64,000 bases of DNA from an uncultured Myxococcales bacterium (GCA_937910285.1 CALEOC010000027.1:6725-70724); one strand, 5' to 3'. Counted from the stretch's first letter, positions 4,501 through 45,624 are shown. Translations and numbers: made by a program. The notes: generated by a model from the sequence alone, not told the origin.

Positions 4501-7500
4501 ACCGAGCCGGCCAACCGGCCGAAGAGCTGGGCTTCGGCCTCGGTCGCCCCGAGCTGGCGCAGCAGCACCTGGCTGTGCGTCCAGGCCAGCTCGAAGACCC
4601 GGTCGGCCAAGCGCCGGTCATGGTAGCGCTCGATGAGCGCCAGCGCCGCCTCTCGGGTGTCGGCGGCCCCGGTCACCATGTCGATCTCCACGGTGGCGTG
4701 GGGCTCGACCGCCACCACCCGGCGCAAGGAGACGATGGGATCGAGCACCGCCCCGGCCGCCCCGCCCAGCTCCGGCTCGCGCAGGGCCGCAGGGCTGGCC
4801 AAGCTGCCGCCGCGGCCAACGAAGGCGCGCCGGTCGGTCTCGAACGACGAGCGGCCCGCCTCCTCGCCGTGCACGTTCATCAGGTGGAGCATCCAGGGCG
4901 GGCGCTCTTCAGAGGAGCGTGCCCGGCGGGTGCAAAGCAGCGCCCGCCGCGGGGCGAAGTGCTCGGTCTGTACGAAGAGGTTGCTGAAGGCCGGGTGGGC
5001 CAGGTCGGCCGCGGCAGGGGCGAGGACCACCTCGGCATAGCTCGTCAGCTCCAGGGTGCGCCGGGTGCGGCCGCGATTGGTGATGCTCAGCCTGCGCAGC
5101 TCGATGTCGTCCTCGGGGGAGACGGCGATCTGCATGCGAGTGATCAGGTCCCCCTGCTCGCGACGCAGCTCCACCCGACCCTGGGAGAAGACGGCCTCGT
5201 AGGCGTCGGTCGGAGCCAGCGTCGGCTGATGGCCGGCCGACCAGCAGGCGCCGCTCTCCAGGTCGCGCAGGTAGAGGAAGGTCCCCTGGTGGTCACGGGT
5301 GGCGTCCTCGCGCCAGCGGGTCAGCGCGAGGTCCTTCCAGCGGCTGTAGCCCGCTCCGGCCGCGCTCACCATCACGTGGAGCCGGCCGTTGGAGAGCAGG
5401 TGCACCTCGGGGGTCGGGGTGTGCGGGGTCGAGAAGTGCCTCAGGGCCCGCTCCGAGGCCGGCTCGAACTCCCAGGCCTTGGCCGCTCCTGCCGGGAGCG
5501 TGGAGATAGGCACCGCCTTGGAGGCCCGCTCCTGCAAGAGCAGGTCGGCCGCCTGGAAGACGGGATCGGCGGCGAAGCGCCGCTGCATCGGCCCGTCGGC
5601 CAGCAGGTTGACCAGGGCGAGAAAGCCCATCCCCTGGTGGTGAGCCATGAAAGAGCGGATGACCACTCGCTCCTGCCCGGGAGGCAAGCGCGAGGGGGTG
5701 TAGTCGACCGCCTCGTAAAGCCCATAGCGACCGCGCATCCGCTCTTTTTCCAGACGGCGCAGGTTGGCGCAGGCCAACCCCGGCTCGAAGGGCAAGGCGA
5801 GCAGGGTCGCATAGGGCGTGACCACCAGGTCCTCGGCCAGCCCGCGGCGCAGCCCCAGGCTCGGGGCGCCGAAGGAGCGGTACTGATAGGTGAGCTGAGC
5901 GTCGGTCGCGTTGTAGGCCGACTCGGAGAAGCCCCAGGGCACCCCGCGCTGCTCGCCGTAGGCGACCTGCTGGGCCACCGCGGCCCGGCAGGTCTGCTCG
6001 AGCAGGCTGCCCGGGTGGCAGGGCATCACCAGGGCGGGCATCAGGTACTCGAACATCGAGCCGCCCCAGGAGAGCAGGACTGGCCTGCCCCCGGTGCTCG
6101 TCTGCAGCCTGCCCAGCGCGAACCAGTGGTCTTGCGGGACCGCGCCGTGGGCGACGGCCACGAAGCTTCCCAGCCGTGCCTCGGAGGCCAAGAGGTCGTA
6201 GAAGCTGTTGTCGAGCCGGTTGGCGGTGACGTTGTAGCCGATGGAGAAGAGGTTGCGGCGCTTGTCGAACAGCAGGCTCTGATCGGCCGAGTCGGCCAGC
6301 GTCCTCAGGCGCGAGGCGAGCCCCTCGAGCCTCTCGATTCGCGCGGCGGCCCGCTCGCCTCCCTCCTCCAGCTTGGCGCGCAGTCGAAGCAGCCGGGCGC
6401 GACCCGTCTCGTCGGCCCCCTGGAGCCGCTCCAGCAACGCCCCGAGCTCGTCGGCGAGCCTGGGCGCTTGTCGAGCAAGGCTTCGCAGCGAGGGGGCGTC
6501 GACCATCTTGCGCAGCCGCTCGCGCAGCCTCTCGGCCCCGTTCAGCTCGGCGCCCAGGCTTTGCAGCGGGTCCCTTTCGCCGGGCGCAAAGAGCTCGAGC
6601 CACGGCGCCAGCTCGCCGAGCTCCTGGCCAACCTCGCCCACCTGGCGCTCGAGCGTCTCGTTCCAGCGGCGCAGCTCGGCTGGAGCGCTCGGCCCGAGCG
6701 AGGAGCGCAGCCCCTCGGCCATCGCCGCCAGCCGCTTGAGCAGCTCGCGCTCCTCGGAGAGCGAGAGCGGCGAGGCCTCCATCTCGAGCTGCATCCGCCG
6801 CAGGCGCGCCGCCACGCCCGGCTGTGCCGGGGCCGGCTCGCCCTCGGGGCTGAAGCCGCACCCCTCGGCCTCCTCGAGCGCCACGTCGAGTGTGTCGCCG
6901 AGGCCACCGACGGCCCTGCGGACGACGAGCGGCTCGTCGGCGAGCCCCTCGAGCCCCGCGGCGAGGGTGAGCATGTGGCCGACCAGGTTGCCGCTGTCCA
7001 CCGAGGAGATGTAGTGCGGGGGCAGCGGCTCGAGGGTGCGGGTGTCGTACCAGTTGAAGAAGTGCCCGCGGTAGCGCTCCATGCGCTCCAAGGTGTCGAG
7101 ACAGTCCGAGGTGCGCTCGATGAGCCTGCCGGTCGAAAGGTATCCGAGGTCGTGCGCTCCCAGGTTGGCGAGCAGCGCGAGGCCGATGTTGGTCGGAGAG
7201 GTGCGATAGAAGACCGCCCCGGCCGGCTTCTCCTGGATGCTGTCGGGCGGAAGGTAGTTGCCCTGGGCGTCGACCAGAGTCTCGAAAAAGCCCCAGGTCC
7301 TCCGGGCGAGGTTGTGTAGGAGCCGCTGGTCCTCGGCCGTGGGGAGAACGAGCCGGGGGGGCGTCGGACGGCTGAGCCACCAGGCGAGCAGAGGGGCAAA
7401 CGCCCACGCGACCAAGAGCGGCAGCAGCGGCCAAGGCGTGGGGGCCCCGGGCCAGAAGGCCAGGGCGGCGCCCGCCGCGACTGCCGACAAAGGGGCGGCG

Positions 7501-10349: not shown

Positions 10350-10965
10350 GGGGGTCCCTTCTCCCCTTGGCGCAGGGAATCCGACGGCAGAGGAGGTCCG
10401 CCGGCGCCACCTGGGGATAAGCATTCGAGTCGATGTCGAGGGCGACGACCCGGTTCATTCGGGTGGCCGAAAGGCGACGCCCCCCTCCAGCCAGCGCCAG
10501 GGAGGCGCCGGGCGGCGAGCGAAAGCTCGCGAGCTCTAGCCCCGAAGAAGGACGCGCCCCGCAAAGAGCGGGCGCCTGGGTGTCGTAAGCGACAGCCCTT
10601 ATAGGTCCCAGAGTTCAGGGGTGTCAAGGGCCGGCGGGATAACGGTGGGTGTTTTGGCTTTTCGCAGTGCGGCCCGTGGGTTTCGACGCCGGGGCTCATT
10701 TCGCCCTCACCCAAGCCGGCCGAGCCGGAACCAAGATGAATCCGGGAGATCGGGGCGGCCGGCAGGCCCCAGTCGTCAGACTTCAGGCTGCAGATTCTTG
10801 CCAATCTGGTCAAACTCTGCCGAGTAGGTCCCCAACCCCTTGGGCGCAGCCAGTCATCCCGAGCTTCGCACCGGTCGTCTCGTGGCTGCGGCCTTCCGAC
10901 CCTCGTGCGCGCCGGCCTTTCCCGTCAGCCCGAGCGAGCTCGAGGTCCGCGTCGACCAGGTGAGA

Positions 10966-15337: not shown

Positions 15338-15599
15338 CTGGTTCCTGGTTCCTGCCGCGGTTGGCCTGGCGCATTTCTGGGCGTCTGAGTGCAGCAAAAG
15401 AGGGGCAAGTGGCCAGTGCGACAAGGAAAAAGCAGGCGCTCCAGCGACCCTGGCGCCGAGTATGACCGTCTGTGTGGGCCTGCGTCGAGACGCTCGACAC
15501 CAGCCTGTGCGCCCGCCGCGGTGTCGGCGTGCAATTGAGGGCCCCAGGAGATCCTCGCCGCAGGCCAGGCAGCCAACCCGCAGGGAGCTCTCGGCGAGC

Positions 15600-16198
15600 A
15601 GCCGCACGTCAGGGACGCATGCCGCCGGGCGGCGGCGCTTGCCTCTTCCGAACACCTGGCGAAACTCTCCATCCCGGTGGGCGCCTGCGGCAACCTGCCG
15701 CCCGAGCTCGCGGAGAAGGTACTCGCCGACGGCGACGCCGACTTCGTGGCGTTCGGCCGGCCGCTCACCGCCGACCCGGAGATCGGCCGCAAGCTGCGCG
15801 AAGGGCGCCCCGCCGACGTGCGCCCCAGCACCCGCTGCAACCAGCTATGCACCGGCAACGCCTTCTTCGGGAAGGCGCTCGGCTGCGCGGTCAACCCGGA
15901 GGTCGGGTTCGAGGGGACGCGGAAGATCGAACGGGCCGACAAGCCCAAGCAGATCGCGATCATCGGCGCCGGACCGGCCGGCCTCGAGGCCGCTCGGGTG
16001 GCCGCGCTGCGCGGGCACACGGTCGAGGTCTTCGACAAGAACCGCTACCTCGGCGGCGTGCTCTGGCCGGCGGCCACCCCGGTCTTCAAGCGCGCGGTGC
16101 TGCCGGCGGCCAGCGTGCGCAACCTCGAGAATCCGCCGCTCGCGCTGGTGCCGGTCTCGACGATCGGCGAGGCGCTGCAGGCGCTGTTCGAGCGGTAG
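15600..16198 (+). pseudogene. chimeric remnant: middle of a FadH/OYE-type NADH:flavin oxidoreductase fused in frame to a copy of the last 37 codons of radA
   Basis: ...KLSIPVGACGNLPPELAEKVLADGDADFVAFGRPLTADPE... is the end of an OYE TIM barrel. ...QIAIIGAGPAGLEAARVAALRGHTVEVFDKNRYLGG... is a dinucleotide-binding fold. The text then switches abruptly to FKRAVLPAASVRNLENPPLALVPVSTIGEALQALFER*, which is the RadA C-terminus. No N-terminus is present. Confidence 0.8.
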
Positions 16199-16415: not shown

Positions 16416-17447
16416 TCAGCGAGCTCGTGCCCCGGTGCGCTCGGCCCGCGCGAGGATCAGCTCTCCGGCGATGCTGATGGCGATCTCCGCCGGCGTCTCC
16501 GCCTCGATCGCCGTTCCGATGGGGGTGTGAATCCGCGCGATCGCCTCCTGAGGGATGCCCGCCTCGCGGAGCCTGGCGGCGATGGAGGCGCTCTTCGACC
16601 TGCTGCCGATGACCCCGAGGTAGGCGACCTCGGTGCGCAGCACCTGCTGCTGCACCGAAAAGTCGTGGGCGTGCCCCCGAGTCATCACCACCACGTAGTC
16701 GGCGGCGGTCAGGGTGATCGTCTCGGCGATCTTCGCAAAATCGCCCAGCAGCACCGTCTCGGCTCCGGGGAACCGCTCCCGCGAGGCGAACTCCTCGCGG
16801 TCGTCGATGACGACGCAGCGAAACCCGACGTGGGCGAGCACCGGCACCAGCTCCTGGGCGATATGGCCGCCGCCGAAGATCACGACCCGGCCCGCGCGCA
16901 CCAACGGCTCGGAGTAGTAGCGCCTTCCGGCGATCTCCATCTGCACCGCACGGCTCGCCCAGAGCGGGGCGAGCGGCTCCGCGGGCACGGCCAGGCCCGA
17001 GAGGCCTTGGCTGCGGCTGAAGAGGCCCATGTTCCAGGCCGAGGCGTCGGTCAGGTCGGTGACCAGCCAGGCGTCCTCGTCGCGACTGAACCCGGCCACG
17101 ATGGCCTCGACCCGCGCGAGGTTGGCGCTCTCGTTTGCAGCGACGAACTGGAAGTGGACCTTCACCTCGCCGCCGCAGATCATCCCCAGGTCTTCCACCT
17201 CGTTGCGGGCGAGGACGAAACCCTCCAGGCGAGAGCGCTTTTCATCGAGGATCTTCGCGGCGAGCCCCTCGGCGCGGTGCTCGACGGCGCCGCCTCCGAT
17301 GGTTCCGCGCAGCCTTCCCTGCCGGGTCACCAGCATCCTCGCCCCCGCCTCCCGGGGAATCGAGCCGGTGCTGGCGACGACGGTGACGAGCACCGCGTCT
17401 TCGCCGCTCTCCAAGCGCTCCTTCAGCAGGCCAAACATCGCTCTCAT
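16416..17447 (-). CDS. XdhC/CoxI-family molybdoenzyme maturation protein
   Basis: I start at MRAMFGLLKERL (ATG complement 17445-17447). The N-terminal XdhC domain reads VLVTVVASTGSIPREAGARMLV...GTIGGG. The C-terminal Rossmann part reads RVVIFGGGHIAQELVPVL...VVMTRGHAHD. Confidence 0.8.
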   Translation of the reverse strand: MRAMFGLLKERLESGEDAVLVTVVASTGSIPREAGARMLVTRQGRLRGTIGGGAVEHRAEGLAAKILDEKRSRLEGFVLARNEVEDLGMICGGEVKVHFQFVAANESANLARVEAIVAGFSRDEDAWLVTDLTDASAWNMGLFSRSQGLSGLAVPAEPLAPLWASRAVQMEIAGRRYYSEPLVRAGRVVIFGGGHIAQELVPVLAHVGFRCVVIDDREEFASRERFPGAETVLLGDFAKIAETITLTAADYVVVMTRGHAHDFSVQQQVLRTEVAYLGVIGSRSKSASIAARLREAGIPQEAIARIHTPIGTAIEAETPAEIAISIAGELILARAERTGARAR

Positions 17448-17812
17448 CGGACGAGACTCCCGGGTCGTTGGGGGAAAGGGAGGATAGCTCGAACGCGCGC
17501 GGGTCGAGTTGCTCAGAGGATGGAAGGTCGGTGCGGGACCGCCGTCGGTCTTCACCTTGGCTATCAGGTGTCGCTCGCTCTCAAAGGCTCGTCGAAGGCT
17601 TTGGGATAGGCGGACTGGGCCAGGGTTGCTCGGACGGGACTCAAAGCGACTCTGCCGCTCCCTCCTTGCCCCCAAGCCTTGCGGCTCCTGTCCGCAATAA
17701 GGGCTTCGCCGCCTTGCAACACCGGCCAAGCCAAAGCGCGCGCCCTGGTGACTGCCGCCGGCTCAATGGACCTATTTTCGCCTGACGCAGACCCGAACCA
17801 AGGAGAGATGCC

Positions 17813-18440
17813 ATGAGCGGCTTCGAGCACCTGTTGGCCCCGGGGAAGATCGGCAGCCTCGAGCTCCCCAACCGCATCCTGCTGAGCCCGATGGGAACCG
17901 AGATGTGCACCCCCGACGGCAAGTCGACCCCGGCTCCCCCCTCTGCTGCCCGACAGCGTCGCCGGGCTCGACTCGAAGCAGGTGGTCGACGTGCTCGACT
18001 TCCACCTCGGGGCGCCGCTCGGCAAGCGGGTGGTGGTCGCCGGCGGCGGTCTCTCGGGTTGCGACGCCGCGCTCGAGATAGCGGAGAAGGGCCACGAGGT
18101 CACCCTTGTCGAGATGCTCGACGAGATCGCCCGCGACATGCTCATCACCAACCGGATCACGCTGCTGCGCCAGCTTGCCGAGCGCGGGGTCAAGGTGCTC
18201 ACCGGGCGGACCATCACCGCCATCGAGGAGGGGGCGGTGGTCGCCCAAGGCCCCAACGGCCGCGAGGAGATCGCGGCCGACAGCGTAGTCGCGGCCTTCG
18301 GCGTCCTCCCGGCCACCGAGCTGACCGAGGCCCTGAGGCAGCGCTACGGCGCGAGGGTCCACCCGGTCGGCGACTGCGTCAAACCGCGCAAGGTGGGCGA
18401 CGCGGTCAACGACGCCTACGCGCTCGCGCTGACCTTGTGA
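17813..18440 (+). pseudogene. internally deleted FadH/OYE-type flavoenzyme gene (N-terminal ~40 codons joined out of frame to C-terminal ~165 codons)
   Basis: MSGFEHLLAPGKIGSLELPNRILLSPMGTEM... is a typical OYE N-terminus. About 120 nt later a different frame reads ...LLPDSVAGLDSKQVVDVLDFHLGAPLGKRVVVAGGGLSGCDAALEIAEKGHEVTLVE...VHPVGDC..., which is the C-terminal NAD(P)-binding part of 2,4-dienoyl-CoA-reductase-like enzymes. The barrel and FAD domain are missing here. Confidence 0.75.
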
Positions 18441-18936: not shown

Positions 18937-19334
18937 CACTCGTCGAGTGCGACAAGCGCGGTGCAGGCGCCCGCCTTCGACTCATCGAGTGGTAGGAAGG
19001 CGTGGTAGGCGCCGGTTCTCGACTCATCGAGTGGCAGGAAGGGGTGGTAGACGCCGGTTTTCGACTCATCGAGTGCTAAGAAGGCCTGGCAGGTGCCGGT
19101 CTTCGACTCATCGAGTGCCGAAAACGTCGCGCAGCCGAAGGTTTTTGACTCATCGAGTGGCGAAGAGGCTGCGGAGGCAGCGAATTTTGACTCATCGAGT
19201 GGCGAAGAGGCGGGTTGGGCAGCGAATTTCGACTCATCGAGTGGCGAAGAGGCGGGTTGGGCACCGACCCTTCACTCGATGAGTCGTGTCGGAGCTCGGA
19301 GCTCCGACACGCCTCGACGAAGCTGGAGCTTCGT
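18937..19334. repeat. 42-bp tandem array (8 units) plus inverted core copy and two palindromes
   Basis: The core GACTCATCGAGTG occurs at 18979, 19021, 19063, 19105, 19147, 19189 and 19231, with a degenerate copy at 18937. A reverse-complement core lies at 19273-19285. Palindromes lie at 19286-19310 and 19317-19334. Confidence 0.9.
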
Positions 19335-19516
19335 TCGTCAGACGAAGCCGGAGCTTCATCCTCCATCCCTTCGCGTACCTGGCTCCAAGTTCGCCCACGG
19401 CAGCCTCTCGCGCGATAGGCCGGAGGACCTGCTGTAACGACACCATCCTCGCGGTGGACGCAAACACGAGCATCCGGCAACGATTTGACGGTGAACAGGA
19501 CTTCGAGGGTTTGCAG

Positions 19517-19723
19517 CTAACGCTGCCAGGGGTTGACAACCTCCAGCCCCGGATAGTCGAAATCCCCGACGTTGCGAGTCGCCAGGCGCAGCTCGTGATG
19601 CACGGCCGTGGCAGCGAGCAGGCTGTCGATGCTTGGCATCGGGCGCCCTGCCTTTGCGAGCAGCCGGCCCCAGCAGTCGGCGACTGCCCTGTCCACCGGC
19701 AGCCGCTCGGCCTCTTGCTTCAT
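19517..19723 (-). pseudogene. 5'-truncated PIN-domain (VapC-like) toxin gene remnant
   Basis: The C-terminal half of a PIN domain is clear (LPVDRAVADCWGRLLAKAGRPMPSIDSLLAATAVHHELRLATRNVGDFDYPGLEVVNPW). No N-terminal acidic (DTN-type) segment is present and no antitoxin ORF lies upstream. Confidence 0.55.
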
Positions 19724-19838
19724 GAGCGGTCGGTTGCCCGCCAACCCCGATGCGCGCCCGCCCCAGCGGTGTGGAAAGCCGCGCCCTCGCGGCGCCGCTC
19801 GTGCAAGACTGGACAGTCGAATCCTCTCGGAGGCTGGC

Positions 19839-20636
19839 ATGGGGTCGTGGCTTCGCGTGCTCATTCGTGCGCCCGTCGCTCTCGCCTTTACGCTCGCGGT
19901 GCATTGGTGCGCGCGGCTCCGCGGCGTCCTCGTCTACTGGCGCTGGTGGAGGCGTCGGCCGACCGACCTCATCTCGCTCTGGGCGCGGGGGCTCGCCTGG
20001 ATCATGGGCGTCCGCGTGCGCTGCCGCAGCCGTCCCGAGGGCCCGATGGGCGATCTCATCGTCGCCAACCACATGGGCTTTCTCGACGTCCCGGCGCTGG
20101 GCTCTCTCTTCCCCGCCGTCTTCGTCATCAAAATGGAGATGCGCCGGGTCCTCTACTTCGGCTCCGCGCTCGCCGCGCAAGGGCACGTCTTCGTCGACCG
20201 CGCGAGCAGCGAGTCGAGGCGCTCGGCTCGCGAGGGCGTGCGCGGCGTCCTCGAGGACGGCGATCGCCTCGTCGTCTTCCCCGAAGGAGGCGCGAGCCCC
20301 GAGGCGCTGCGTCCTCCCTTCAAGCCGTTCTGCTTCCACGAAGCCGCACGGCAGGGAAAGCTCGTGCAGGCCTGCGTCATCGACTACCTGCCCGACCGCA
20401 AGGCGCTGCGCTGGGACACCGGCCGCGGGATGCTGCCGCAGCTCGTCGAGCTGTTGGGCCGCAGGCGCACCGAGATCAGCCTCGAGCTGCTGCCCGCCGA
20501 ACGCATCGCGGACCCGGACTCGGCCGCCCAGCGCTACCACGACTTGATAGAGGGCCGGCTCCTCGAATACGACCGCCTCGCCTCGCGCCCCACAGAAGCC
20601 GCAAAGGACGACCATGCAACCCAACAAGCCGCGTAA
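19839..20636 (+). CDS. lysophospholipid/glycerolipid acyltransferase (PlsC/LPLAT family)
   Basis: I start at MGSWLRVLIR (ATG 19839). It has a hydrophobic N-terminus, the HX4D motif (ANHMGFLD) and FPEGG. Confidence 0.8.
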   Translation: MGSWLRVLIRAPVALAFTLAVHWCARLRGVLVYWRWWRRRPTDLISLWARGLAWIMGVRVRCRSRPEGPMGDLIVANHMGFLDVPALGSLFPAVFVIKMEMRRVLYFGSALAAQGHVFVDRASSESRRSAREGVRGVLEDGDRLVVFPEGGASPEALRPPFKPFCFHEAARQGKLVQACVIDYLPDRKALRWDTGRGMLPQLVELLGRRRTEISLELLPAERIADPDSAAQRYHDLIEGRLLEYDRLASRPTEAAKDDHATQQAA

Positions 20637-22341
20637 GCACCAGCCGGGCCTGGTCACCCGCTTCATGGCCCGCCACCTGGAGACCATCCTCTCCATCCCC
20701 GGCTCCAAGCTCTACCGCAGCTTCGTCGCGGCGGCGCGCGACACCCGGGCGACCCAGGAGCGGCTGCTGCGGGAGATCCTCCACTACGCCGGCGACACCG
20801 CCTTCGGGCGCGAGCACCGCTTCGGCGCGGTCGCGACGCCCGAGCAGTTCCGCGCCGCGGTGCCAGTGCGCGACTACGAAGGGCTGCTCCCCTACATCGA
20901 GCGGCACATCAACGGCGAGGCCGGGGTGCTCTTCCCGGGCAAGCCGCTCATGTACAACCAGACGAGCGGCACCACCGCGAAGGCGAAGCTGCTGCCGGTC
21001 TCGCCCTATGCCTTCGAGCGCACCATCAAGAACCGCGGCAAGCTCTGGCTCTACGGGCTGATGCGCGACTTCCCCGGGGTCTACGCCGGCAAGGACTTCA
21101 CCCTCGTCTCGCCCTCGGTCGAGGGCCACACCCCCGACGGCACCCCGTACGGCAGCCTCTCGGGCCTCGTCTACCAGAATATCCCCGAGTTCATAAAGCT
21201 CGTACACACCATCCCGTACAGCGCGATGACCATCGCCGACCACCGGGCCAAGGTCTACACGCTGTTGCGCTGCGCGCTCGGCGCCAACGTCACCATCATC
21301 CTGACCGGCAACCCGTCGACGGTGCTCAACTTCGTGCGCCGCGCCGACGAGGCGAAGGAAGAGCTCATCCGCGACATCCACGACGGGACGCTCGACCCGA
21401 CGCTCGAGCTCGACCCGGCCATCCGCGCTGAGGTCGAGTCGACCCTCGAGCCGGACCCGGAGCGGGCCGCCGAGCTCGAGCGGCTCGCCGGCTCGGCGCA
21501 GCGTTTCACGCCCGCGCTCTACTGGCCGAACCTGAAGCTCGTCCACACCTGGACCAACGGCAACTGCGGCCTGCTCATCCCGAAGCTGCGCGAGTGGTTC
21601 GCGCCCGAAACCCCGATCCTCGACTTCGGATACATCGCCTCGGAGCTCACTGCCACCGACCTCATCGACAAGCAGTCCGGCGGCTCGATCCTGCAGATCC
21701 AGAACGGCTACTACGAGTTCGCGCACGTCGATGACGGCGACTCGCCCGACCGGCGCTTCCTGCTCGCCGACGAGCTCGAGGTCGGAGAGCGCTACTTCAT
21801 CTACGTCACCACGCTCAGCGGGCTGTACCGCTACGAGATGAACGACGTGCTCGAGGTCGTCGGCCACTTCGACACCGCGCCCGTCGTCCGCTTCCTCTAC
21901 AAGGGCAAGGGCATCACCAGCATCACCGGCGAGAAGCTCTCCGAGGATCAGCTCATCGAGGCGATGGCCATCGCCTCGCGCGAGACCGGCGTCGGGTACG
22001 AGTTCTTCATGGGCTACGCCGACGTCGAGAGGCAGCGCTACAGCCTCTACGTCGAGTTCCCGGCCGACACCAGCCCGGCACGCCGGCGCGAGTTTCAGCT
22101 CGCCGTCGACGAGGCCCTCGCGTGCGTCAACGTCGAGTACCGAGCCAAGAGGGCGAGCGAACGGCTCGCACCGCTCGAGCTGCTGCCGCTGCGCCGGGAT
22201 TCCTTCGAGCGCTATCGCGCCCTGCGCCTCGCCGAGGGCGCTCACGACGGGCAGTTCAAGTGGATGCATCTGTCCGGGCTCGACCACACCCGAGAGCGGA
22301 TGGACCAGCTCGTCGAGGGTTCGATCCGGAAAGCGTCGTGA
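20614..22341 (+). CDS. GH3-family adenylate-forming (acyl acid-amido synthetase-like) protein
   Basis: The N-terminal region resembles bacterial GH3 proteins (TQERLLREILHYAGDTAFGREHRF...FRAAVPVRDYEGLLPYIERHINGE...LMYNQTSGTTAKAKLLPV). Length is 575 aa. It overlaps the acyltransferase stop by 23 nt; an alternative ATG lies at 20665. Confidence 0.8.
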   Translation: MQPNKPRKHQPGLVTRFMARHLETILSIPGSKLYRSFVAAARDTRATQERLLREILHYAGDTAFGREHRFGAVATPEQFRAAVPVRDYEGLLPYIERHINGEAGVLFPGKPLMYNQTSGTTAKAKLLPVSPYAFERTIKNRGKLWLYGLMRDFPGVYAGKDFTLVSPSVEGHTPDGTPYGSLSGLVYQNIPEFIKLVHTIPYSAMTIADHRAKVYTLLRCALGANVTIILTGNPSTVLNFVRRADEAKEELIRDIHDGTLDPTLELDPAIRAEVESTLEPDPERAAELERLAGSAQRFTPALYWPNLKLVHTWTNGNCGLLIPKLREWFAPETPILDFGYIASELTATDLIDKQSGGSILQIQNGYYEFAHVDDGDSPDRRFLLADELEVGERYFIYVTTLSGLYRYEMNDVLEVVGHFDTAPVVRFLYKGKGITSITGEKLSEDQLIEAMAIASRETGVGYEFFMGYADVERQRYSLYVEFPADTSPARRREFQLAVDEALACVNVEYRAKRASERLAPLELLPLRRDSFERYRALRLAEGAHDGQFKWMHLSGLDHTRERMDQLVEGSIRKAS

Positions 22342-23063
22342 CCTTCTGCTCCATCGAGGGCGTCCTGTTCGACCTCGACGGGACGCTCTACGCCCACTCG
22401 AGGCGGCTCAAGCTGCGCATCGTGCTCGCCTGCCTGCGCGACCTCGCGCCCCTCCGCAGGCTGCCTTCGGTGCGGCGCGAGCTCGCCGGCCGCCTCTTCG
22501 AGAGCGAAGCGGCGTTGCTCGAGGAGCACCACCGCCTGCTCGCGGCTCGTTCGGGCGTCTCGCCCGAGCGCGCGCGGCGCTTCTACGAGGAGCGCTTCAT
22601 GCCCGCGTTCGTCGAGGTCTTGCGCCGTCACGCCCGGCCGCGCCCCGGCCTGGTCGAGCAGCTTCGCGAGCTCGCCGCGCGCGGGGTCGCCTGCTGCGTG
22701 CTGTCCGACCACGGCCAGGTCGAGCAGCGGCTCGAGGCGCTGGGGATCGATGCGCGGCTCTTTCGCGCTTGTGCCTCTTCGGCCTCAAGCGGCGCGTTCA
22801 AGCCCGCGCCCGCCTCGTTTCTGCAGATGGCAGAGCGCTGCGGCATTCCCCCGTCGCGCTGGCTCGTCGTCGGAGACCGCCCGGACACCGACGCGGCGGG
22901 CGCCGCGGCGGCCGGCATGGCGTTTCTCGGCGTCTGCGACCGGCCGATCGTTGTGCCGGACTTCCAACCGTGGCCGCGGGTGCTGGAGCGCCTCTCGGAG
23001 ATCGGGCGGCATGTCGGCAAAGACGCCGGAGAGATCACTCCCCGCGCAGCCGCCGAGTCGTAG
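22338..23063 (+). CDS. HAD-superfamily hydrolase
   Basis: The GTG start overlaps the GH3 stop (GTGA). HAD motif I is VLFDLDGTLY. A later VVGDRPDTD motif is also present. Confidence 0.75.
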   Translation: MTFCSIEGVLFDLDGTLYAHSRRLKLRIVLACLRDLAPLRRLPSVRRELAGRLFESEAALLEEHHRLLAARSGVSPERARRFYEERFMPAFVEVLRRHARPRPGLVEQLRELAARGVACCVLSDHGQVEQRLEALGIDARLFRACASSASSGAFKPAPASFLQMAERCGIPPSRWLVVGDRPDTDAAGAAAAGMAFLGVCDRPIVVPDFQPWPRVLERLSEIGRHVGKDAGEITPRAAAES

Positions 23064-23107
23064 TCCGCGAAGTCCGGGGGCGCTCTGCCCGGCGTGAAGG
23101 AAACCCC

Positions 23108-24292
23108 ATGCACCAGTCCTCAGACGCGCAGCCGCCCCCTCCTCCCGGCGCCGGCGCACGTCGCTCTCGACGCCACCTGCTCCACCGCGGGCTGCGCAGC
23201 CGTCCCGGGCGCGCGGCCCTGACGCTCTCCGGAGTCGCCGCCAGCGCCCTGCTCGTCCTGGTGCTGCTCGCCGCCTACCGCGGCCTGGGCGCGAGCGTCG
23301 CCAGCTACACCGGCCAGCCGGACATCGACCTCTGGGTCGGTCCCCAAGGCGTCGACAACCTCATCCGCTCCTCCGCGATGCTCTTGCCCGAGCAGATCTC
23401 GGACGTGCAGGAGATCGAAGGCCTGCGGGCCGAGCCGCTGGTGCGCGGCTTCGTCCCCGTCGAGGGCGCGCCGGACGAGGACGGCAAGCCGCGCTCGATG
23501 CTGCTGCTCGCCATCGGCTACCGCATCCCCGACGGCCTCGGCGGACCTCCGCAGGTCGCCGAGGGCCAGCGACCGGCCGGGCCCCAGGAGGTGGCGCTCG
23601 ACCGCGCCGCGGCGTACCGGCTGGGCCTGAAGGTCGGCGACGAGATGAAGGTCGGCGGGCAGACCGTGAAGCTGGTCGGCCTCACGCGCGAGACCAACCT
23701 GCTCTCGACCCAGCTGCTCTTCTGCGACGTCGCGGCGCTCCAGCAGGCGATGGGCTTGGAGGGGCGCGCCTCCTTCGTCGCCGTCCGCGTCGAGGACGGG
23801 CGCGACCCCAAGGAGGTCGCCCGGCAAATCGAGGAGGAGACGCCCGGCGGCGCGGCCTGGGAGCGGCAGGTCTTCGTCGAGAACAGCGTCCGCGAGATCA
23901 CCACCGGCATCGTCCCGCTGCTCTTCCTCATCGCCGGGCTGGGCGCGGCGATGGCCGCGGTGCTCGTCGCCCTGCTCGTCAACGGGCTCATCGAGGAGCG
24001 GCGGCCGGAGATAGGCGTGCTGCTGGCGATGGGCACATCGGCCTTCGCGGTCGGCGGCGCCGTGCTGTGCCACATCCTCACCCTGGTGATCATCGGCGCG
24101 CTGACCGGCACCGCGCTCGCCCTCGGGCTCGACGCCGCGCTCGACCGCTGGGTGCCGACCATCGAGCTGGCGAGCGCTCCATCCGACTGCCTCGTGGCCG
24201 CGCTGCTCTTCTCCGTCTCGGGCACGCTCGCCGCGCTCTTCCCCGTCGCCATGCTCTCGAGAATCGACCCGCTGGAGGCCTTCCGCTCGTGA
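23108..24292 (+). CDS. ABC transporter permease, FtsX/MacB-like
   Basis: I start at MHQSSDAQ (ATG 23108). It has an N-terminal TM helix, a large extracytoplasmic domain and a C-terminal FtsX-type three-helix bundle ending ...LSRIDPLEAFRS. Confidence 0.75.
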   Translation: MHQSSDAQPPPPPGAGARRSRRHLLHRGLRSRPGRAALTLSGVAASALLVLVLLAAYRGLGASVASYTGQPDIDLWVGPQGVDNLIRSSAMLLPEQISDVQEIEGLRAEPLVRGFVPVEGAPDEDGKPRSMLLLAIGYRIPDGLGGPPQVAEGQRPAGPQEVALDRAAAYRLGLKVGDEMKVGGQTVKLVGLTRETNLLSTQLLFCDVAALQQAMGLEGRASFVAVRVEDGRDPKEVARQIEEETPGGAAWERQVFVENSVREITTGIVPLLFLIAGLGAAMAAVLVALLVNGLIEERRPEIGVLLAMGTSAFAVGGAVLCHILTLVIIGALTGTALALGLDAALDRWVPTIELASAPSDCLVAALLFSVSGTLAALFPVAMLSRIDPLEAFRS

Positions 24293-25008
24293 CTGCCGCG
24301 CTCATCCTGAAGGACGTCTCCAAAGCGAGGGGCTCGGGCCCACAGGCGACGCAGGCGCTCGTCGAGGTCTCGCTGCACATCGAGCCCGGCGAGGTGCTCG
24401 CGCTCCAGGGTCCAAGCGGCGCGGGCAAGACGACGCTGCTGTCGGTGGCCGGCGGGCTGCTCGAAGCGGACGCGGGCGAGGTCGTCCTCGCCGGCCGCCC
24501 GCTCGGCGGCGACCGCGCTGCCGACCGGGCGCACCGGGCGCGCTCGGTGGGGTTCGTCTTCCAGCGCCCGAACCTGCTCTCGCGGCTCACCGTGCGCGAG
24601 AACGTGCTGCTCGCCGCCGCCATGGCGGGGCTCTCGACCGACCAGGCGGAGCGCGAAGCCGCCTCGCTGCTCGACGCGCTCGGGCTTCAAGGCCTCGCCA
24701 GTCGGCTGCCCGACCAGCTCTCCGGCGGCCAGGAGCAGCGCTGCGCGGTGGCGCGGGCGCTCATCCATCGACCGGCGGTCTTGCTCGCCGACGAGCCGAC
24801 CGGCAGCCTCGATTCGAAGTCCGGCGCGCGGGTCGCCGAGCAGCTCCTCTCCATCGCCAAGGAGCGCGGCGCCGCGGTGGTCATCGCGACCCACGACGAC
24901 GGGCTGGCCGCGCGCTGCGAGCGCCGGGTGCGCATCGTCGACGGCCGGCTCGAGGAGGAGCAGCCCCGCCGACCCGAGGAGACGCGGCCGACGGGGACCG
25001 GAGCGTAG
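24289..25008 (+). CDS. ABC transporter ATP-binding protein (LolD/MacB-type)
   Basis: The GTG start overlaps the permease stop (GTGA). Motifs: Walker A GPSGAGKTT, signature LSGGQEQR, Walker B VLLADEPT. Confidence 0.9.
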   Translation: MTAALILKDVSKARGSGPQATQALVEVSLHIEPGEVLALQGPSGAGKTTLLSVAGGLLEADAGEVVLAGRPLGGDRAADRAHRARSVGFVFQRPNLLSRLTVRENVLLAAAMAGLSTDQAEREAASLLDALGLQGLASRLPDQLSGGQEQRCAVARALIHRPAVLLADEPTGSLDSKSGARVAEQLLSIAKERGAAVVIATHDDGLAARCERRVRIVDGRLEEEQPRRPEETRPTGTGA

Positions 25009-25081
25009 CGAGGCCGGATCCGGCCGAGCAGATCCGCCGCGGCTGCCGAAGAGCTGCCGGAAGCGACTGGAGACCTTCCCG

Positions 25082-25396
25082 ATGATCCCTGTCGAAGAGC
25101 TCATCCGTTCGAAGCTCGCGCTTCTCCTCTGGTCGGAGAACGGAGAGGGAGAGGACGAGGCGGCCGTCTTCGTCGGCAAGGTCGTTCGCTCCGGCGAACG
25201 GCTCTCGTTTCAGGGCCAGGACGGGGCCTCGCTCGAGCTCGAGGAGGAGTGGCTGAGCCGCATCAAGCCTGTCGACGCCAAGCTCGCCGACATCCTCATG
25301 AATGCGGACTACTTCCTGCCGCTGTCCGTCGGCCCGCTGCCTCCCGGCCTGTCCGCTTCCGACTTCCTGCGCACCGGCCTGCGCTGGCCCGATTGA
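25082..25396 (+). CDS. hypothetical small acidic protein
   Basis: A 104-aa ORF of ordinary, non-Arg-rich composition lies 73 nt downstream of the ABC ATPase on the same strand. No family was recognised. Confidence 0.5.
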   Translation: MIPVEELIRSKLALLLWSENGEGEDEAAVFVGKVVRSGERLSFQGQDGASLELEEEWLSRIKPVDAKLADILMNADYFLPLSVGPLPPGLSASDFLRTGLRWPD

Positions 25397-25422
25397 CGCG
25401 GACGAAAGCCGAGCCGCGAAGT

Positions 25423-26835
25423 TCACTCCAGCTTCAGCTCGGCCACCAACGCCTGCAGCACCTTCTTCGCGTCGCCGAAGATCATCGAGGCGTTGGGCGC
25501 CTCGAACAGCTCGTTCTTGACCCCCGCGTAGCCCGAGCCGAGCGAGCGCTTCACGATGAAGACCGTCTTGGCGTTGTAGACCTGGACGATGGGCATTCCA
25601 TAGATGGGGCTGTCTTTCCTCGTCTCGGCCGCCGGGTTGACTACGTCGTTGGCGCCGAGCACCAGCGCGACGTCGGTGTCCTTGAGGTCCGGGTTGATCT
25701 GCTCCATCTCGACGAGCTTCTCGTAGGGCACCTCGGCCTCGGCGAGCAGGACGTTCATGTGCCCGGGCATCCGGCCGGCGACCGGGTGGATGGCGAAGCT
25801 GACGCGGGCGCCACGCTGCTCGAGCAGATCGGCGAGCTCGCGGGTGGCGTGCTGCGCCTGGGAGACCGCGAGCCCGTAGCCGGGGACGATGACCACCGAG
25901 CCGGCCGCCTCGAGCACCATCGCCGCCTCCTCGGGCGTCGCCGCGCGCACGTTCTGGTACTCCTCGGTCCCGGTCGGCGCGCCGACCTCGCCACCGAAGC
26001 CTCCGAGCACGACGCTCGGCAACGAGCGGTTCATCGCCTTGCACATGATGCGCGTGAGGATGAGCCCGGCCGCGCCGACGAGCGCGCCGGCGATGATCAG
26101 CAGGAGGTTGCCGACGACGAAGCCGGTCGCCGCGGCGGCGAGGCCCGAGTACGAGTTGAGCAGCGAGACGACGACGGGCATGTCCGCGCCGCCGATGGGG
26201 ACGACCAGCAGAACCCCGAGCACGAGCGAGGCGCAGACCAAGCCGATCAACACCTTCGCGCCGAGCGTCGCTTGCCCGGCCGAGAACGCGAAGAAGCCGA
26301 TAGCCCCAAGGCTGGCGAGGAGGAGCGCGAGCGCGAGCAAATGCAGCCCGGGGAACGAGCGCGGCTTGCCGGAGAGGGCACCGCTCAGCTTGCCGAACGC
26401 GACGAGGCTGCCGGAGAAGGTGAGCGCGCCGATGAGCGCCGAGAGGCCGATCGTCGCCGCCCCGGCGGCATCGGGCGCAGCAACGGCGGGCGGCTCGACG
26501 ATGTCGGACCAGTAGACCGACAGCGCCACCAGCGCCGAGGCCGCGCCGCCGAAGCCGTTGAGCAGCGCGACGAGCTCGGGCATCCCGGTCATCTTCACGC
26601 GGTAGGCGGCGAGCGCTCCGACGGCCGCGCCGACGACGAGGCCGCCGACTATCCAGCGGTAGTCCACCCGGCCAAGCTCGACGAGCGTGCCGACCACCGC
26701 GAGCAGCATCCCGGTCGCGGCGATGGCGTTGCCCCGGCGCGCGGTGCGCACCTTCGAGAGCCGCATCAACCCGAGGATGAAGAGGACCGCCGAGAGCAGG
26801 TAGACGAGCGCGACGACGACCGTCCGGGCGTTCAT
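25423..26835 (-). CDS. pntB: NAD(P) transhydrogenase subunit beta
   Basis: Multi-helix N-terminal membrane domain plus C-terminal dIII (VIVPGYGLAVSQAQH...FAIHPVAGRMPGHMNVLLAEA...LVLGANDVVNP). Confidence 0.95.
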   Translation of the reverse strand: MNARTVVVALVYLLSAVLFILGLMRLSKVRTARRGNAIAATGMLLAVVGTLVELGRVDYRWIVGGLVVGAAVGALAAYRVKMTGMPELVALLNGFGGAASALVALSVYWSDIVEPPAVAAPDAAGAATIGLSALIGALTFSGSLVAFGKLSGALSGKPRSFPGLHLLALALLLASLGAIGFFAFSAGQATLGAKVLIGLVCASLVLGVLLVVPIGGADMPVVVSLLNSYSGLAAAATGFVVGNLLLIIAGALVGAAGLILTRIMCKAMNRSLPSVVLGGFGGEVGAPTGTEEYQNVRAATPEEAAMVLEAAGSVVIVPGYGLAVSQAQHATRELADLLEQRGARVSFAIHPVAGRMPGHMNVLLAEAEVPYEKLVEMEQINPDLKDTDVALVLGANDVVNPAAETRKDSPIYGMPIVQVYNAKTVFIVKRSLGSGYAGVKNELFEAPNASMIFGDAKKVLQALVAELKLE

Positions 26836-41790: not shown

Positions 41791-41849
41791 GACGAACCAC
41801 GCGGGTTTCTTGGTAGAAGCGCCCACCTCGCTGTTAGGTTCCGCACCCC

Positions 41850-45351: not shown

Positions 45352-45458
45352 AGACGTATCGAAGAGTCCTCTGAGCGATGACCGGAAAACCCGAGCCCCT
45401 CCGACGGGCTCAGCCCGGGCTTCGAGCGGAATCCGAGCGATCGGCCGCAGGTCGGTAG

Positions 45459-45478
45459 GGGCGCATGGCAATGCGCCC
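45459..45478. repeat. hairpin repeat GGGCGCAT-GGCA-ATGCGCCC
   Basis: Same family as 43836-43855 and 55631-55648. Each copy is preceded by (T)AGGG. Confidence 0.65.
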
Positions 45479-45624
45479 GGCGAGGAATCGAGCAGAGGCG
45501 CCCGACTCGAGGGCTCCCGGCCGCCAGCACGAAGGCTGGTGCTTCGGACCTCGTAACAGCCTGCCAGTTCAAGGTCACAGCCGGGAGGGGGCCGGGCCAC
45601 GGCATCGACTATCATGCCGCTCCC

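Follow-up and report, generated by a model that had tools for sequence, protein, structure and literature searches.

The closest described counterpart of the locus studied here is the OlsH/OlsI system of planctomycetes. OlsH, a GH3-like enzyme of Singulisphaera acidiphila, uses ATP to convert a free fatty acid to N-acyl-ornithine, and the ornithine lipid is completed by a separate O-acyltransferase, the alpha/beta-hydrolase OlsI, which is the operon partner of OlsH in all planctomycete cases (PMC12493201). In the OlsB/OlsA system of the Sinorhizobium meliloti type, the first step depends on acyl-ACP and OlsB, and the enzyme of the second is a PF01553 acyltransferase that has HX4D and FPEG motifs. 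Plant GH3 enzymes, such as JAR1, VvGH3-1 and AtGH3.12, act alone in hormone conjugation. On the export side, LolCDE extracts lipoproteins and the type VII system DevBCA exports a PKS-derived glycolipid; aryl-polyene/flexirubin-type clusters have an export module consisting of an acyltransferase, a LolA-like protein and an MMPL/RND protein. GH3 genes are also present in the legionellol (lol1), borrelidin and fostriecin PKS clusters, and knockout of the cluster-borne GH3 in Legionella left the cluster product unchanged (PMC5640695). This knockout result was counted against the explanation that we favour below.

The window, i.e., the whole 64-kb stretch of DNA analysed here, carries five genes and a small trailing ORF as follows:

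19839..20636, + strand: PlsC/LPLAT-type acyltransferase, 265 aa (Pfam PF01553, motifs)
20614..22341, + strand: GH3-family acyl-acid amido synthetase, 575 aa, soluble (Pfam GH3 N/M/C, motifs)
22338..23063, + strand: HAD-superfamily subfamily-IA phosphatase, 241 aa (Pfam, motifs, AlphaFold2 model)
23108..24292, + strand: FtsX/MacB-type permease, 394 aa (Pfam MacB_PCD and FtsX, hydrophobic segments)
24289..25008, + strand: ABC ATPase of the LolD/MacB/DevA/YbbA group, 239 aa (Pfam ABC_tran, motifs)
25082..25396, + strand: small acidic ORF, 104 aa (homologue clusters; no Pfam or NCBIfam match)

An earlier note on this DNA had described five closely packed same-strand genes, and all five were found on the + strand with the domains that it had assigned, as examined by Pfam. 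Its junctions could also be read directly: the acyltransferase stop codon (TAA, 20634-20636) lies within the GH3 gene, whose ATG is at 20614, giving a 23-nt overlap; GTGA sequences at 22338-22341 and 24289-24292 form the GH3/HAD and permease/ATPase junctions, respectively, indicating that these two pairs are translationally coupled; and between HAD and the permease ATG at 23108 there is a gap of 44 nt (23064-23107). Shine-Dalgarno-like sequences (GGAGG, AAGGA and GAAGGA) were located 5' of the three ATG starts. Note that a sequence search at the operon found no promoter or terminator consensus, which was counted against the favoured explanation.

This arrangement exceeds chance, since the same gene order and overlaps recur in the locus L001 of a Myxococcales genome with an 83%-identical GH3, and dN/dS values between the window and L001 were 0.19-0.48 across all five genes, indicating purifying selection. 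Furthermore, a 5616-nt contig from an RNA library (metatranscriptome) of a ~95%-identical strain covers positions 19726-25014, exactly the five genes, with even depth throughout. Contigs of up to 58 kb occur in the same library, so that DNA carry-over is possible for this contig; this possibility and the strain difference were likewise counted against the favoured explanation. As part of that explanation, we propose that the five genes form a single transcription unit.

The GH3 protein matched the N, M and C domain models of Pfam at 3.5e-69, 4.7e-19 and 1.1e-18 (233.8, 68.7 and 68.4 bits against a cut-off of 23.6). It had 477 homologues at E<=1e-10, the nearest in Myxococcales MAGs. The three-domain fold of plant GH3 enzymes was covered at full length (E 1e-39 to 1e-27 for the three plant proteins named above), with 1e-39 for the crystal structure 4b2g (residues 39-564) and 2.5e-38 for JAR1, and the adenylation motifs were the same. 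Specifically, the patterns SSGTSxGxxK, YxxSE and GLYRYxxGD were searched for the ATP/AMP-binding site, and the corresponding T117SGTTAKAK125, Y340IASE344 and G403LYRYEMND411 were all present, the last with N in place of G before the final D. Residues S118, G119, T120, Y340, E344, Y407 and D411 were invariant in 15 clade members. These nucleotide motifs are conserved in OlsH, which has TSGTTQGATK, YPCSE and GMWSHLIGD at the corresponding sites, and the window GH3 is about equally distant from OlsH and plant GH3. An assignment as an OlsH equivalog was ruled out by the score on NCBIfam NF052613 (105.3 bits against a cut-off of 620; best stretch 40-247); GH3 proteins of the related loci L003 and L056 reached 80 and 94 bits on the same model. 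We propose that the window GH3 is a candidate ATP-dependent ligase that couples an amine head group with a free acid of fatty or polyketide type. The view that bacterial GH3 homologues are essentially uncharacterised, taken in the earlier note, is outdated, given that OlsH/OlsI was published in 2025 and NCBIfam models exist (PMC12493201).

The acyltransferase was recognised by PF01553 at 3.9e-14 (53 bits against a cut-off of 23) and, like OlsA, has the HX4D and FPEG motifs previously noticed in it (H78MGFLD83 and F147PEG), as well as F118VDR and one N-terminal hydrophobic anchor (segment 7-25). Its best NCBIfam scores were for OlsA (67.2 and 56.4 bits on NF052553 and NF052552), missing the cut-off of 300, and it scored 65.8 bits on the AGPAT domain model, also below the cut-off, so that OlsA and AGPAT were not discriminated. 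Note that the scores of the GH3 and the acyltransferase, far below the OlsH and OlsA cut-offs, respectively, were counted against the favoured explanation. Orthologues of the acyltransferase (60-65% identity) lie directly 5' of GH3 in eight loci (L006, L010-L013, L043, L086 and L088), and a different PF01553 acyltransferase adjoins GH3-HAD in 23 loci; overall, such an acyltransferase accompanies GH3 in about 31 loci, and many GH3-HAD loci have none within 5 kb. We propose it as a candidate O-acyltransferase adding a second acyl chain. Pfam detected no OlsI-type alpha/beta-hydrolase in the operon, where the PF01553 acyltransferase is the partner of GH3.

The HAD protein matched PF00702 (3.6e-22) and HAD_2, and its motifs D12LDGT16, S123D, K155P and G179DRPDTD185 were invariant in 26 family members. 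The second Asp of DxDxT marks it as phosphatase type, not dehalogenase. The AlphaFold2 model (pLDDT 93.7) has a Rossmann-like core with a helical C1 cap (helices 22-98), and the nearest folds were PH0459, NANP and phosphoglycolate phosphatases, each with probability 1.00. No NCBIfam equivalog model was reached, the best being TIGR02253 (59 bits against 170). An orthologous HAD gene lies directly 3' of GH3 on the same strand, at a median distance of 40 bp, in 40 of the 81 assessable loci, and these loci span Myxococcota, Spirochaetota, Bacteroidota and Fibrobacterota. Its proposed role is dephosphorylation of a phosphorylated head group or lipid intermediate.

The last two genes fit the MacB/LolCDE-type pair that had been suggested. 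The permease has MacB_PCD (2.8e-12, residues 37-243) and FtsX (1.1e-7, residues 274-388) domains and four hydrophobic segments (34-66, 263-297, 302-345 and 359-384) corresponding to 4 TM helices, TM1 and TM2 being separated by a large periplasmic domain, and its ATPase is encoded separately (ABC_tran 8.5e-34; Walker A 41-48, LSGG 144, Walker B 164-170, H-loop H202), as in LolCDE, MacAB and DevBCA. Unlike these systems, the operon has a single permease gene and no MacA/DevB adaptor, and the ATPase reached no equivalog cut-off in NCBIfam (YbbA 196 bits; DevA 195.8 against 295.8; LolD 170.9 against 307.75; MacB 176.6 against 966). Because a domain search found no HlyD-family gene in 19839-25396 or its flanks, the transporter is Lol-like rather than MacAB-like. 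We propose that the permease is a candidate extractor of lipid from the inner membrane. The permease is kept beside HAD in L001 (87% identity), and its next-closest homologues (about 50%) lie inside another lipid-type operon (L092/L093), in which the permease/ATPase subfamily recurs.

As for conservation of the neighbourhood, locus comparison showed that the GH3, HAD and acyltransferase trio recurs in four bacterial phyla, but the full five-gene order, with FtsX/ABC adjoining GH3, was seen in the closest relatives only; the limited adjacency of FtsX/ABC was counted against the favoured explanation. Elsewhere the adjacent exporter is an MMPL protein with or without a LolA-like protein (MMPL at L088 and L089; LolA-like and MMPL at loci of Treponema bryantii, other Treponema and Bacteroidales), and L033 has an ABC ATPase, two FtsX permeases and a LolA-like protein. 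The durable unit, as judged from these sequences, is the trio, and the transporter is exchangeable. With their PF01553 acyltransferase, LolA-like protein and ~800-aa MMPL, the Treponema/Bacteroidales GH3-HAD loci resemble the aryl-polyene/flexirubin module; in the window, on the other hand, the export role is taken by FtsX/ABC, and aryl-polyene KS/ACP genes are absent.

Taken with the described systems, the operon most likely represents a variant, as yet undescribed, of the GH3-dependent pathway to ornithine lipids that was reported in 2025. That pathway combines ATP-dependent N-acylation by a GH3-like enzyme with a separately encoded O-acylating enzyme in one operon (PMC12493201), as the operon studied here would; the latter, however, has no OlsG methyltransferase and includes, in addition, a HAD phosphatase and an ABC exporter of its own. 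Compared with OlsB/OlsA, the second step would be alike and the first would depend on ATP and GH3; unlike the plant enzymes, the window GH3 is operon-linked to lipid enzymes and exporters. The earlier note knew of no pathway with this composition; a pathway of close logic exists, since OlsH/OlsI has been published with NCBIfam models, but the variant itself is undescribed. Synthesis of N-acyl-ornithine by OlsH was already known (PMC12493201), and what is new is the GH3-HAD linkage across four phyla, the PF01553 partner, the exchangeable exporter and the PKS neighbours in some relatives.

More specifically, we consider that the operon may well, with roughly even chances, serve to make, by a GH3-dependent route, a lipid with two acyl chains and an amide linkage, and to export this lipid to the envelope; broadly speaking, the product would be an amino-lipid. 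In a first step, the soluble GH3 would adenylate a free long-chain acid with ATP and transfer it to the amine of a head group, both substrates being presumed; the acid would probably be a hydroxy fatty acid, supplied in some relatives by an adjacent iterative PKS and thioesterase. This chemistry would follow that of plant GH3 and OlsH, with which the protein shares its fold and ATP motifs. Second, the membrane-anchored PlsC-type acyltransferase would attach another acyl chain to a free hydroxyl through an ester bond, like OlsA with lyso-ornithine lipid, an activity suggested by its motifs and linkage. Third, HAD would remove one phosphate, likeliest from a phosphorylated amine acceptor or a lipid intermediate, in what would be the amide analogue of the conversion of lysophosphatidate to phosphatidate and diacylglycerol. 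Such a step is suggested by the catalytic motifs and by how very widely GH3 and HAD are linked, and its substrate and order are the least secure part of the proposal; we know of no amino-lipid pathway that requires a phosphatase, so that the step would be without precedent. Finally, FtsX/ABC would act as an adaptor-less type VII (MacB/LolCDE-like) machine that takes the completed lipid out of the inner membrane, from its outer leaflet, so that it can be delivered to the outer membrane, as suggested by its architecture and by the swapping of exporters at homologous loci. To our knowledge, no MacB-type machine moves its substrate through the bilayer, and the proposal therefore leaves the flipping step unaccounted for. 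The idea of an acyl-amido lipid that is put together at the membrane and afterwards expelled was thus supported in part. Comparative analysis left it with better support than any other reading, because HAD, PlsC-type acyltransferases and lipid exporters are linked to this GH3 clade in different phyla and because a related GH3 enzyme makes N-acyl-ornithine (PMC12493201), but the function is one that we infer.

The same chemistry could, though we regard it as unlikely, serve a specialised secreted lipid or surfactant, in which a polyketide-type acid from an iterative PKS encoded elsewhere in the genome is conjugated by GH3, acylated and expelled. GH3 adjoins polyketide or fatty-acid-type synthases in L003, L004, L086 and L087, as it does in the legionellol, borrelidin and fostriecin clusters, which differ from the operon in that, as listed, they show no HAD or PlsC-type acyltransferase (PMC5640695). 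In relatives with 58-62%-identical GH3, the neighbour is an iterative PKS (KS-KS-AT-ACP-KR-DH; 2,660-2,760 aa) with a 4HBT thioesterase, and FAD oxidase/4HBT thioesterase or PKS-4HBT-abhydrolase-epimerase sets also occur. An adjacent PKS with thioesterase would supply a free, possibly hydroxylated acid, and this adjacency was also counted for the favoured explanation. One PKS cluster type, likewise counted for the favoured explanation, adds an enolase-superfamily enzyme with partial NCBIfam matches including N-acetyl-D-Glu racemase and Ala-Glu epimerase. In L089, the HAD gene and the start of the PKS gene share 4 nt, with the GH3 of the same genome on another contig. However, no PKS was found in the 64-kb window or within 5 kb of GH3 at the Treponema and Bacteroidales loci, and the exporters are of the envelope-lipid type (Lol-like, or MMPL with LolA-like), unlike typical metabolite efflux pumps.

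The adjacency of permease and ATPase to GH3 in the closest relatives only, the 44-nt gap between HAD and permease where the other junctions overlap, and the name 'antimicrobial peptide transport permease' given to homologues in some sources would also suit two unrelated abutting units, namely the acyltransferase/GH3/HAD trio and a generic MacB/Lol-like peptide or drug pump. We consider this improbable, given that one even-depth RNA-library contig spans all five genes, that a lipid-type operon also houses the closest relatives of the permease and ATPase, and that in other phyla different lipid exporters lie beside the homologous trios, a pattern expected of non-orthologous replacement of one role.

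Slightly less probable still is a glycerolipid-like route, in which the acyltransferase and HAD would act as plant sn-2 GPATs do, acylating a phosphorylated backbone and then dephosphorylating it; GH3 would supply or modify the acyl or head group, and a neutral backbone lipid with one or two acyl chains would result instead of an N-acyl amino acid lipid. Plant GPAT4/6/8 and HAD-PlsC fusions pair an acyltransferase with a HAD phosphatase, the window HAD has the full phosphatase motif set, and the acyltransferase scores equally on the 1-acylglycerol-3-phosphate acyltransferase domain and OlsA. On the other hand, nothing in the loci indicates glycerol-3-phosphate, many GH3-HAD loci have no acyltransferase within 5 kb, and all characterised GH3 enzymes make amides, not esters (PMC12493201; plant GH3 structures). 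Very improbable is non-lipid conjugation of the plant kind, in which GH3 would couple an amino acid with a small acid, aromatic or hormone-like, as a means of detoxification or signalling, and a pump would remove the conjugate. Among solved structures, enzymes that conjugate auxin and jasmonate match best, but PlsC-type acyltransferases, LolA-like carriers, MMPL exporters and fatty-acid-type PKS are persistently found in linkage with GH3, and OlsH indicates that bacterial GH3 accepts fatty acids (PMC12493201).

The small ORF that was said to trail the set exists and is acidic (18 D+E against 10 K+R), but it is not linked to the five genes. The RNA-library contig stops short of it, and its single-sequence model (pLDDT 59) was not usable. 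In L001/L005, an IS66 transposase and an oxidoreductase separate the ABC gene from the homologue of the small ORF (75-78%), which lies 5 kb beyond the ABC gene beside the downstream neighbour. The family comprises 272 representative clusters at E<=1e-3, all of about 100-110 aa, and is far more widespread than the operon; the small ORF is a real conserved gene, probably outside the unit.

The five plus-strand genes named by the earlier note are real, since Pfam domains were found in each of them:

19839-20636, plus strand: acyltransferase, Pfam PF01553 Acyltransferase (3.9e-14)
20614-22341, plus strand: GH3 protein, three Pfam GH3 domains (3.5e-69, 4.7e-19 and 1.1e-18)
22338-23063, plus strand: HAD protein, Pfam HAD families (PF00702, 3.6e-22)
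23108-24292, plus strand: permease, Pfam MacB_PCD and FtsX
24289-25008, plus strand: ABC ATPase, Pfam ABC_tran (8.5e-34)

The junctions were also as that note described, namely a 23-nt overlap of the acyltransferase and GH3 genes (ATG at 20614, TAA at 20634-20636), GTGA at 22338-22341 and at 24289-24292, and a 44-nt gap ahead of the permease ATG at 23108. ATG starts of the operon were preceded by Shine-Dalgarno-like purine runs. Note that the G+C content of the window is ~70%, so that mechanical ORF lists are crowded; a promoter and terminator scan of 19000-25800, uninformative at 70% G+C, found none, and an Rfam scan of the whole window gave no match. Catalytic motifs were intact in all five proteins. 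The acyltransferase, which alone among the operon's biosynthetic proteins has a membrane anchor, carries HMGFLD (78-83), FVDR and FPEG. The GH3 protein, read in the earlier note as a ligase, has the nucleotide-binding motifs TSGTTAKAK (117-125), YIASE (340-344) and GLYRYEMND (403-411), and the HAD protein has DLDGT, SD, KP and GDRPDTD. The HAD structure model (pLDDT 93.7) has a helical C1 cap, and its closest folds were small-molecule phosphatases. In the permease, a ~200-residue periplasmic domain lies amid four hydrophobic helices, and the ATPase has Walker A/B, LSGG and the H-loop, so that the pair is built like a type VII ABC system that lacks an adaptor protein.

The nearest relatives of the GH3 protein (92%, 85% and 83% identity) were in Myxococcales/Myxococcota metagenome genomes. 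The five-gene order and overlaps are kept in the last of these, a Myxococcales MAG (L001/L005; L-numbers denote homologous loci), and RadA is encoded upstream of the operon there as in the window. The dN/dS values between the window and L001 were 0.33 for the acyltransferase, 0.33 for GH3, 0.48 for HAD, 0.19 for the permease and 0.23 for the ATPase. The region was present in four metatranscriptome runs. Run X5 had one evenly covered contig of 5616 nt, from a ~95% identical strain, that lay on 19726-25014, extending from ~110 nt ahead of the first start to 6 nt beyond the last stop, and the following contig started at 25431, inside the convergent pntB gene. This fits one five-gene transcript; Logan contigs carry no strand, and DNA carry-over is possible because the library also has contigs up to 58 kb. 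The small acidic ORF said to trail the operon (25082-25396) does exist and is conserved; it has no Pfam match and belongs to a widespread family of ~100-110 aa without a Pfam model (272 representative clusters at E<=1e-3, 52 at E<=1e-10). However, its homologue in L001/L005 lies 5 kb past the ABC gene, with an IS66 transposase and an oxidoreductase in between, and keeps its place beside the downstream neighbour, so that we excluded it from the unit. Its fold model (pLDDT 59) was too low for use.

We then examined the linkage of these genes across genomes by tblastn with the window proteins and all-against-all clustering of neighbouring ORFs. A scan with one genome per species gave 80 loci, and more were added via protein look-ups. 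GH3 was directly followed by a same-strand HAD orthologue, at a median gap of 40 bp, in 40 of the 81 loci with enough downstream sequence. The linkage was found in 38 of 63 loci of a clade with ~40% GH3 identity (Treponema, other Spirochaetota, Bacteroidales and Fibrobacter) and, within the window's own clade, in L001, L013 and L088. The orthologues keep the motifs FDLDGTLY, SDY, KP and GDRxDTD. A second HAD in L085, 5 kb from GH3, was not homologous to the window HAD. The window-type acyltransferase (60-65% identical) was directly upstream of GH3 in L006, L010-L013, L043, L086 and L088. GH3-HAD in 23 loci of the distant clade is adjoined by another PF01553 acyltransferase (~275 aa, NHxxxxD and FPES motifs, Pfam 7e-14), which has no pairwise similarity to the window's. 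Two unrelated members of one enzyme family thus occupy the same neighbourhood, which argues that the function is required, rather than the gene order inherited. In addition, tandem GH3 paralogues (38-40% identical to the window GH3) followed by HAD occur in L030, L042, L052, L058 and L081, from Bacteroidales/Bacteroidaceae and one Spirochaetia genome; they could perform two successive amide ligations, e.g., for a lipodipeptide.

The earlier note's view of bacterial GH3 enzymes as essentially uncharacterised is out of date, since OlsH, a GH3-like enzyme of ornithine-lipid synthesis in a planctomycete, was described in 2025 (PMC12493201). The olsH operon includes the gene for methyltransferase OlsG, and olsH deletion abolishes the lipid (PMC12493201). 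The acyl-amido lipid logic proposed earlier now has a direct precedent. The best NCBIfam match of the window GH3 was "lyso-ornithine lipid synthetase OlsH" (105 bits vs. a cut-off of 620), and that of the acyltransferase was "lyso-ornithine lipid O-acyltransferase OlsA" (67 bits vs. 300; the generic AGPAT domain gave 66 bits). Judged by these scores, both proteins lie outside the exact OlsH and OlsA families. GH3 also aligned over its full length with crystal structures of plant GH3 enzymes (4b2g, 1e-39; JAR1, 2.5e-38), suggesting that it is about equally distant from OlsH, as gauged by the NCBIfam model score, and from the plant enzymes. OlsH, together with OlsI as O-acyltransferase, forms a GH3-dependent acyl-amide lipid pathway of the same kind as proposed here. 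However, the window has a GH3 of a different clade, a PlsC-type acyltransferase where the OlsH pathway has OlsI, a HAD partner that looks obligatory, and exporters that are dedicated and interchangeable. The operon is thus not categorically new and is a clear variant of this kind of pathway, spread over at least four phyla and including the cultured isolate Treponema bryantii. Full-text literature searches covering GH3 alongside HAD, MMPL, LolA or PKS turned up no description of the present gene set.

In the proposed mechanism, GH3 would adenylate a free long-chain acid and form an amide with an amine head group, the acyltransferase would esterify a second chain, HAD would take the phosphate off a phosphorylated head group or intermediate, and FtsX/ABC would pull the lipid from the inner membrane for outward transfer. 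The scheme has no flipping step, because MacB-type machines work from the periplasmic side. The phosphatase step is the least secure, since to our knowledge no amino-lipid pathway described so far has one; on the other hand, the very wide HAD-GH3 linkage indicates that HAD matters. We tentatively propose that GH3, HAD and the PlsC-type acyltransferase make up a lipid pathway that is phylogenetically wide, has not been described before and proceeds via an amide intermediate bearing a phosphate, a reading which, taken whole, we still hold to be rather unlikely. A phospho-amino compound would be N-acylated by GH3, the acyltransferase would put the second chain on this lysophosphatidate look-alike, HAD would strip the phosphate to leave a neutral ceramide- or diacylglycerol-like amide lipid, and FtsX/ABC, or MMPL with a LolA-like protein, would carry it to the outer membrane.

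The same chemistry with another acid and role, i.e., a PKS-derived specialised surfactant, is a possible but improbable explanation. Some window-clade loci have the order acyltransferase-GH3-PKS, in which the gene after a ~2,700-aa KS-KS-AT-ACP-KR-DH synthase encodes a fusion of an FAD oxidase with a 4HBT thioesterase. Other loci of this clade, L003 (1-9770) and L004 (1-9755), from Competibacteraceae and Rhodospirillales genomes, encode a PKS (KS-AT-KR-DH), a 4HBT thioesterase, an alpha/beta-hydrolase, an enolase-superfamily enzyme with partial NCBIfam matches including N-acetyl-D-Glu racemase and Ala-Glu epimerase models, and GH3. Genes for a phosphopantetheinyl transferase, an MFS transporter and a MacB-type tripartite pump are present in L004 as well. 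An acid released by a thioesterase, and possibly beta-hydroxylated, would be exactly what GH3 needs. In one MAG, the PKS start is overlapped by HAD, and GH3 is on a separate contig. No PKS was found within the 64-kb window.

That the acyltransferase, GH3 and HAD genes merely abut an unrelated generic transporter is quite unlikely. FtsX/ABC is the exporter in the window and L001, and the exporter varies among the other loci. A LolA-like protein and a ~800-aa MMPL transporter come after the three biosynthetic genes in Treponema bryantii NK4A124 (L056), in two further Treponema (L029 and L070) and in a Bacteroidales genome (L063). A divergent MMPL lies upstream of acyltransferase-GH3-HAD in L088, MMPL adjoins HAD in L089, and GH3 of one Treponema lineage is neighboured by a LolA-like protein and by an ABC ATPase with two FtsX permeases. 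The next-closest homologues of the permease (~50%) and ATPase (52-58%) sit within another conserved lipid-type operon, suggesting that this transporter subfamily tends toward dedicated lipid-pathway use. This operon, common to two unrelated metagenome contigs (L092, 7001-8814, and L093, 7001-8796, with flanks), has the order aminotransferase class I/II, UbiA (a prenyltransferase), DAG-kinase-like (a lipid kinase), AIRS, FtsX, ABC, DUF3419 and GNAT. The aminotransferase is of serine-palmitoyltransferase-like size, and L092 adds a fatty-acid hydroxylase. The operon resembles a further uncharacterised lipid pathway, one that brings its own exporter.

The phosphatase step of the amide pathway would have a parallel in the conversion of lysophosphatidate to phosphatidate and diacylglycerol, and plant GPATs are an acyltransferase/phosphatase parallel. 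A glycerolipid-type route, with a phosphorylated backbone as the target of acyltransferase and HAD, we regard as very unlikely. Least likely is plant-like conjugation of small acids, despite the alignment with plant enzymes, because lipid-type neighbours persist around GH3. HAD was also considered as a possible BT2127-type inorganic pyrophosphatase driving adenylation by pyrophosphate hydrolysis. This was dropped as less likely, since BT2127 entries were absent from the solved-structure matches of the window HAD and of a Bacteroidales GH3-linked HAD. Genes for aspartokinase/homoserine dehydrogenase and aspartate-semialdehyde dehydrogenase adjoin two Treponema loci; a homoserine or phosphohomoserine head group was rejected, since such neighbours were limited to one lineage each.

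Bacterial GH3 homologues are widespread, probably with other amines, and their functions are unknown (PMC12493201; PMC12971839, a 2026 review); the 2025 paper left open the role of thousands of them outside planctomycetes. Together with its relatives, the operon marks out a separate GH3 clade. The partners of this clade are fixed, namely a HAD phosphatase, an acyltransferase of PlsC type and exporters of envelope lipids, and they give a concrete, testable pathway hypothesis. The carriers include the cultured Treponema bryantii, and the Bacteroidales loci found are from uncultured genomes. If the phosphorylated-amide pathway is correct, an unknown lipid class would exist in rumen and gut Treponema, Bacteroidales, Fibrobacter and environmental Myxococcota. 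A new envelope lipid would matter for how membranes adapt, for how hosts recognise gut bacteria, and for making N-acyl surfactants enzymatically without ACP or CoA.

Several other features of the window were observed. An iteron-like array (18937-19285), ~550 nt upstream of the operon, has seven exact direct copies of GACTCATCGAGTG at exactly 42-nt spacing from 18979 to 19231. An eighth copy, at 18937, is degenerate, and a single exact copy at 19273-19285 is inverted (8 matches vs. 0.12 expected by chance); the 29 nt between copies vary. The related-strain RNA-library contig begins near the array end, and this ~95% identical strain has 43 nt in place of 19367-19725. ORF 19517-19864 (minus strand), which overlaps the acyltransferase start, keeps no more than the C-terminal portion of a PIN (VapC-like) domain (profile 63-111 of 120, E 7e-4) and is therefore probably a toxin-gene remnant. 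Two Old-Yellow-Enzyme/pyridine-nucleotide-disulphide oxidoreductase fragments (15539-16198 and 17886-18440, both plus strand) are in different frames with an XdhC-family gene (16419-17729, minus strand) between them, and L001 has an intact 703-aa gene of the same type downstream of the operon, which suggests that the window gene was rearranged or disrupted. The stop-to-stop frame 48272-53314 (plus strand; 1,680 codons) has an AcrB/RND domain at residues 644-1652 only, and its first ~640 codons may belong to an upstream gene, e.g., for an adaptor protein, that is fused or was mis-joined to it. A stand-alone LPG_synthase_C protein (40144-41112, minus strand), i.e., the aminoacyl-phosphatidylglycerol synthase catalytic domain without a membrane domain, has an ABC-2 transporter pair (41838-43821, plus strand) and a patatin-like phospholipase (45382-46368, plus strand) nearby, and this region may be a second lipid-remodelling neighbourhood. 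Finally, the 2,954-aa protein encoded at 1593-10454 (minus strand) combines two GH94 supersandwich domains with a GH94 catalytic domain and a glucoamylase-like domain, and thus has the predicted domain organisation of a cyclic beta-1,2-glucan synthase.
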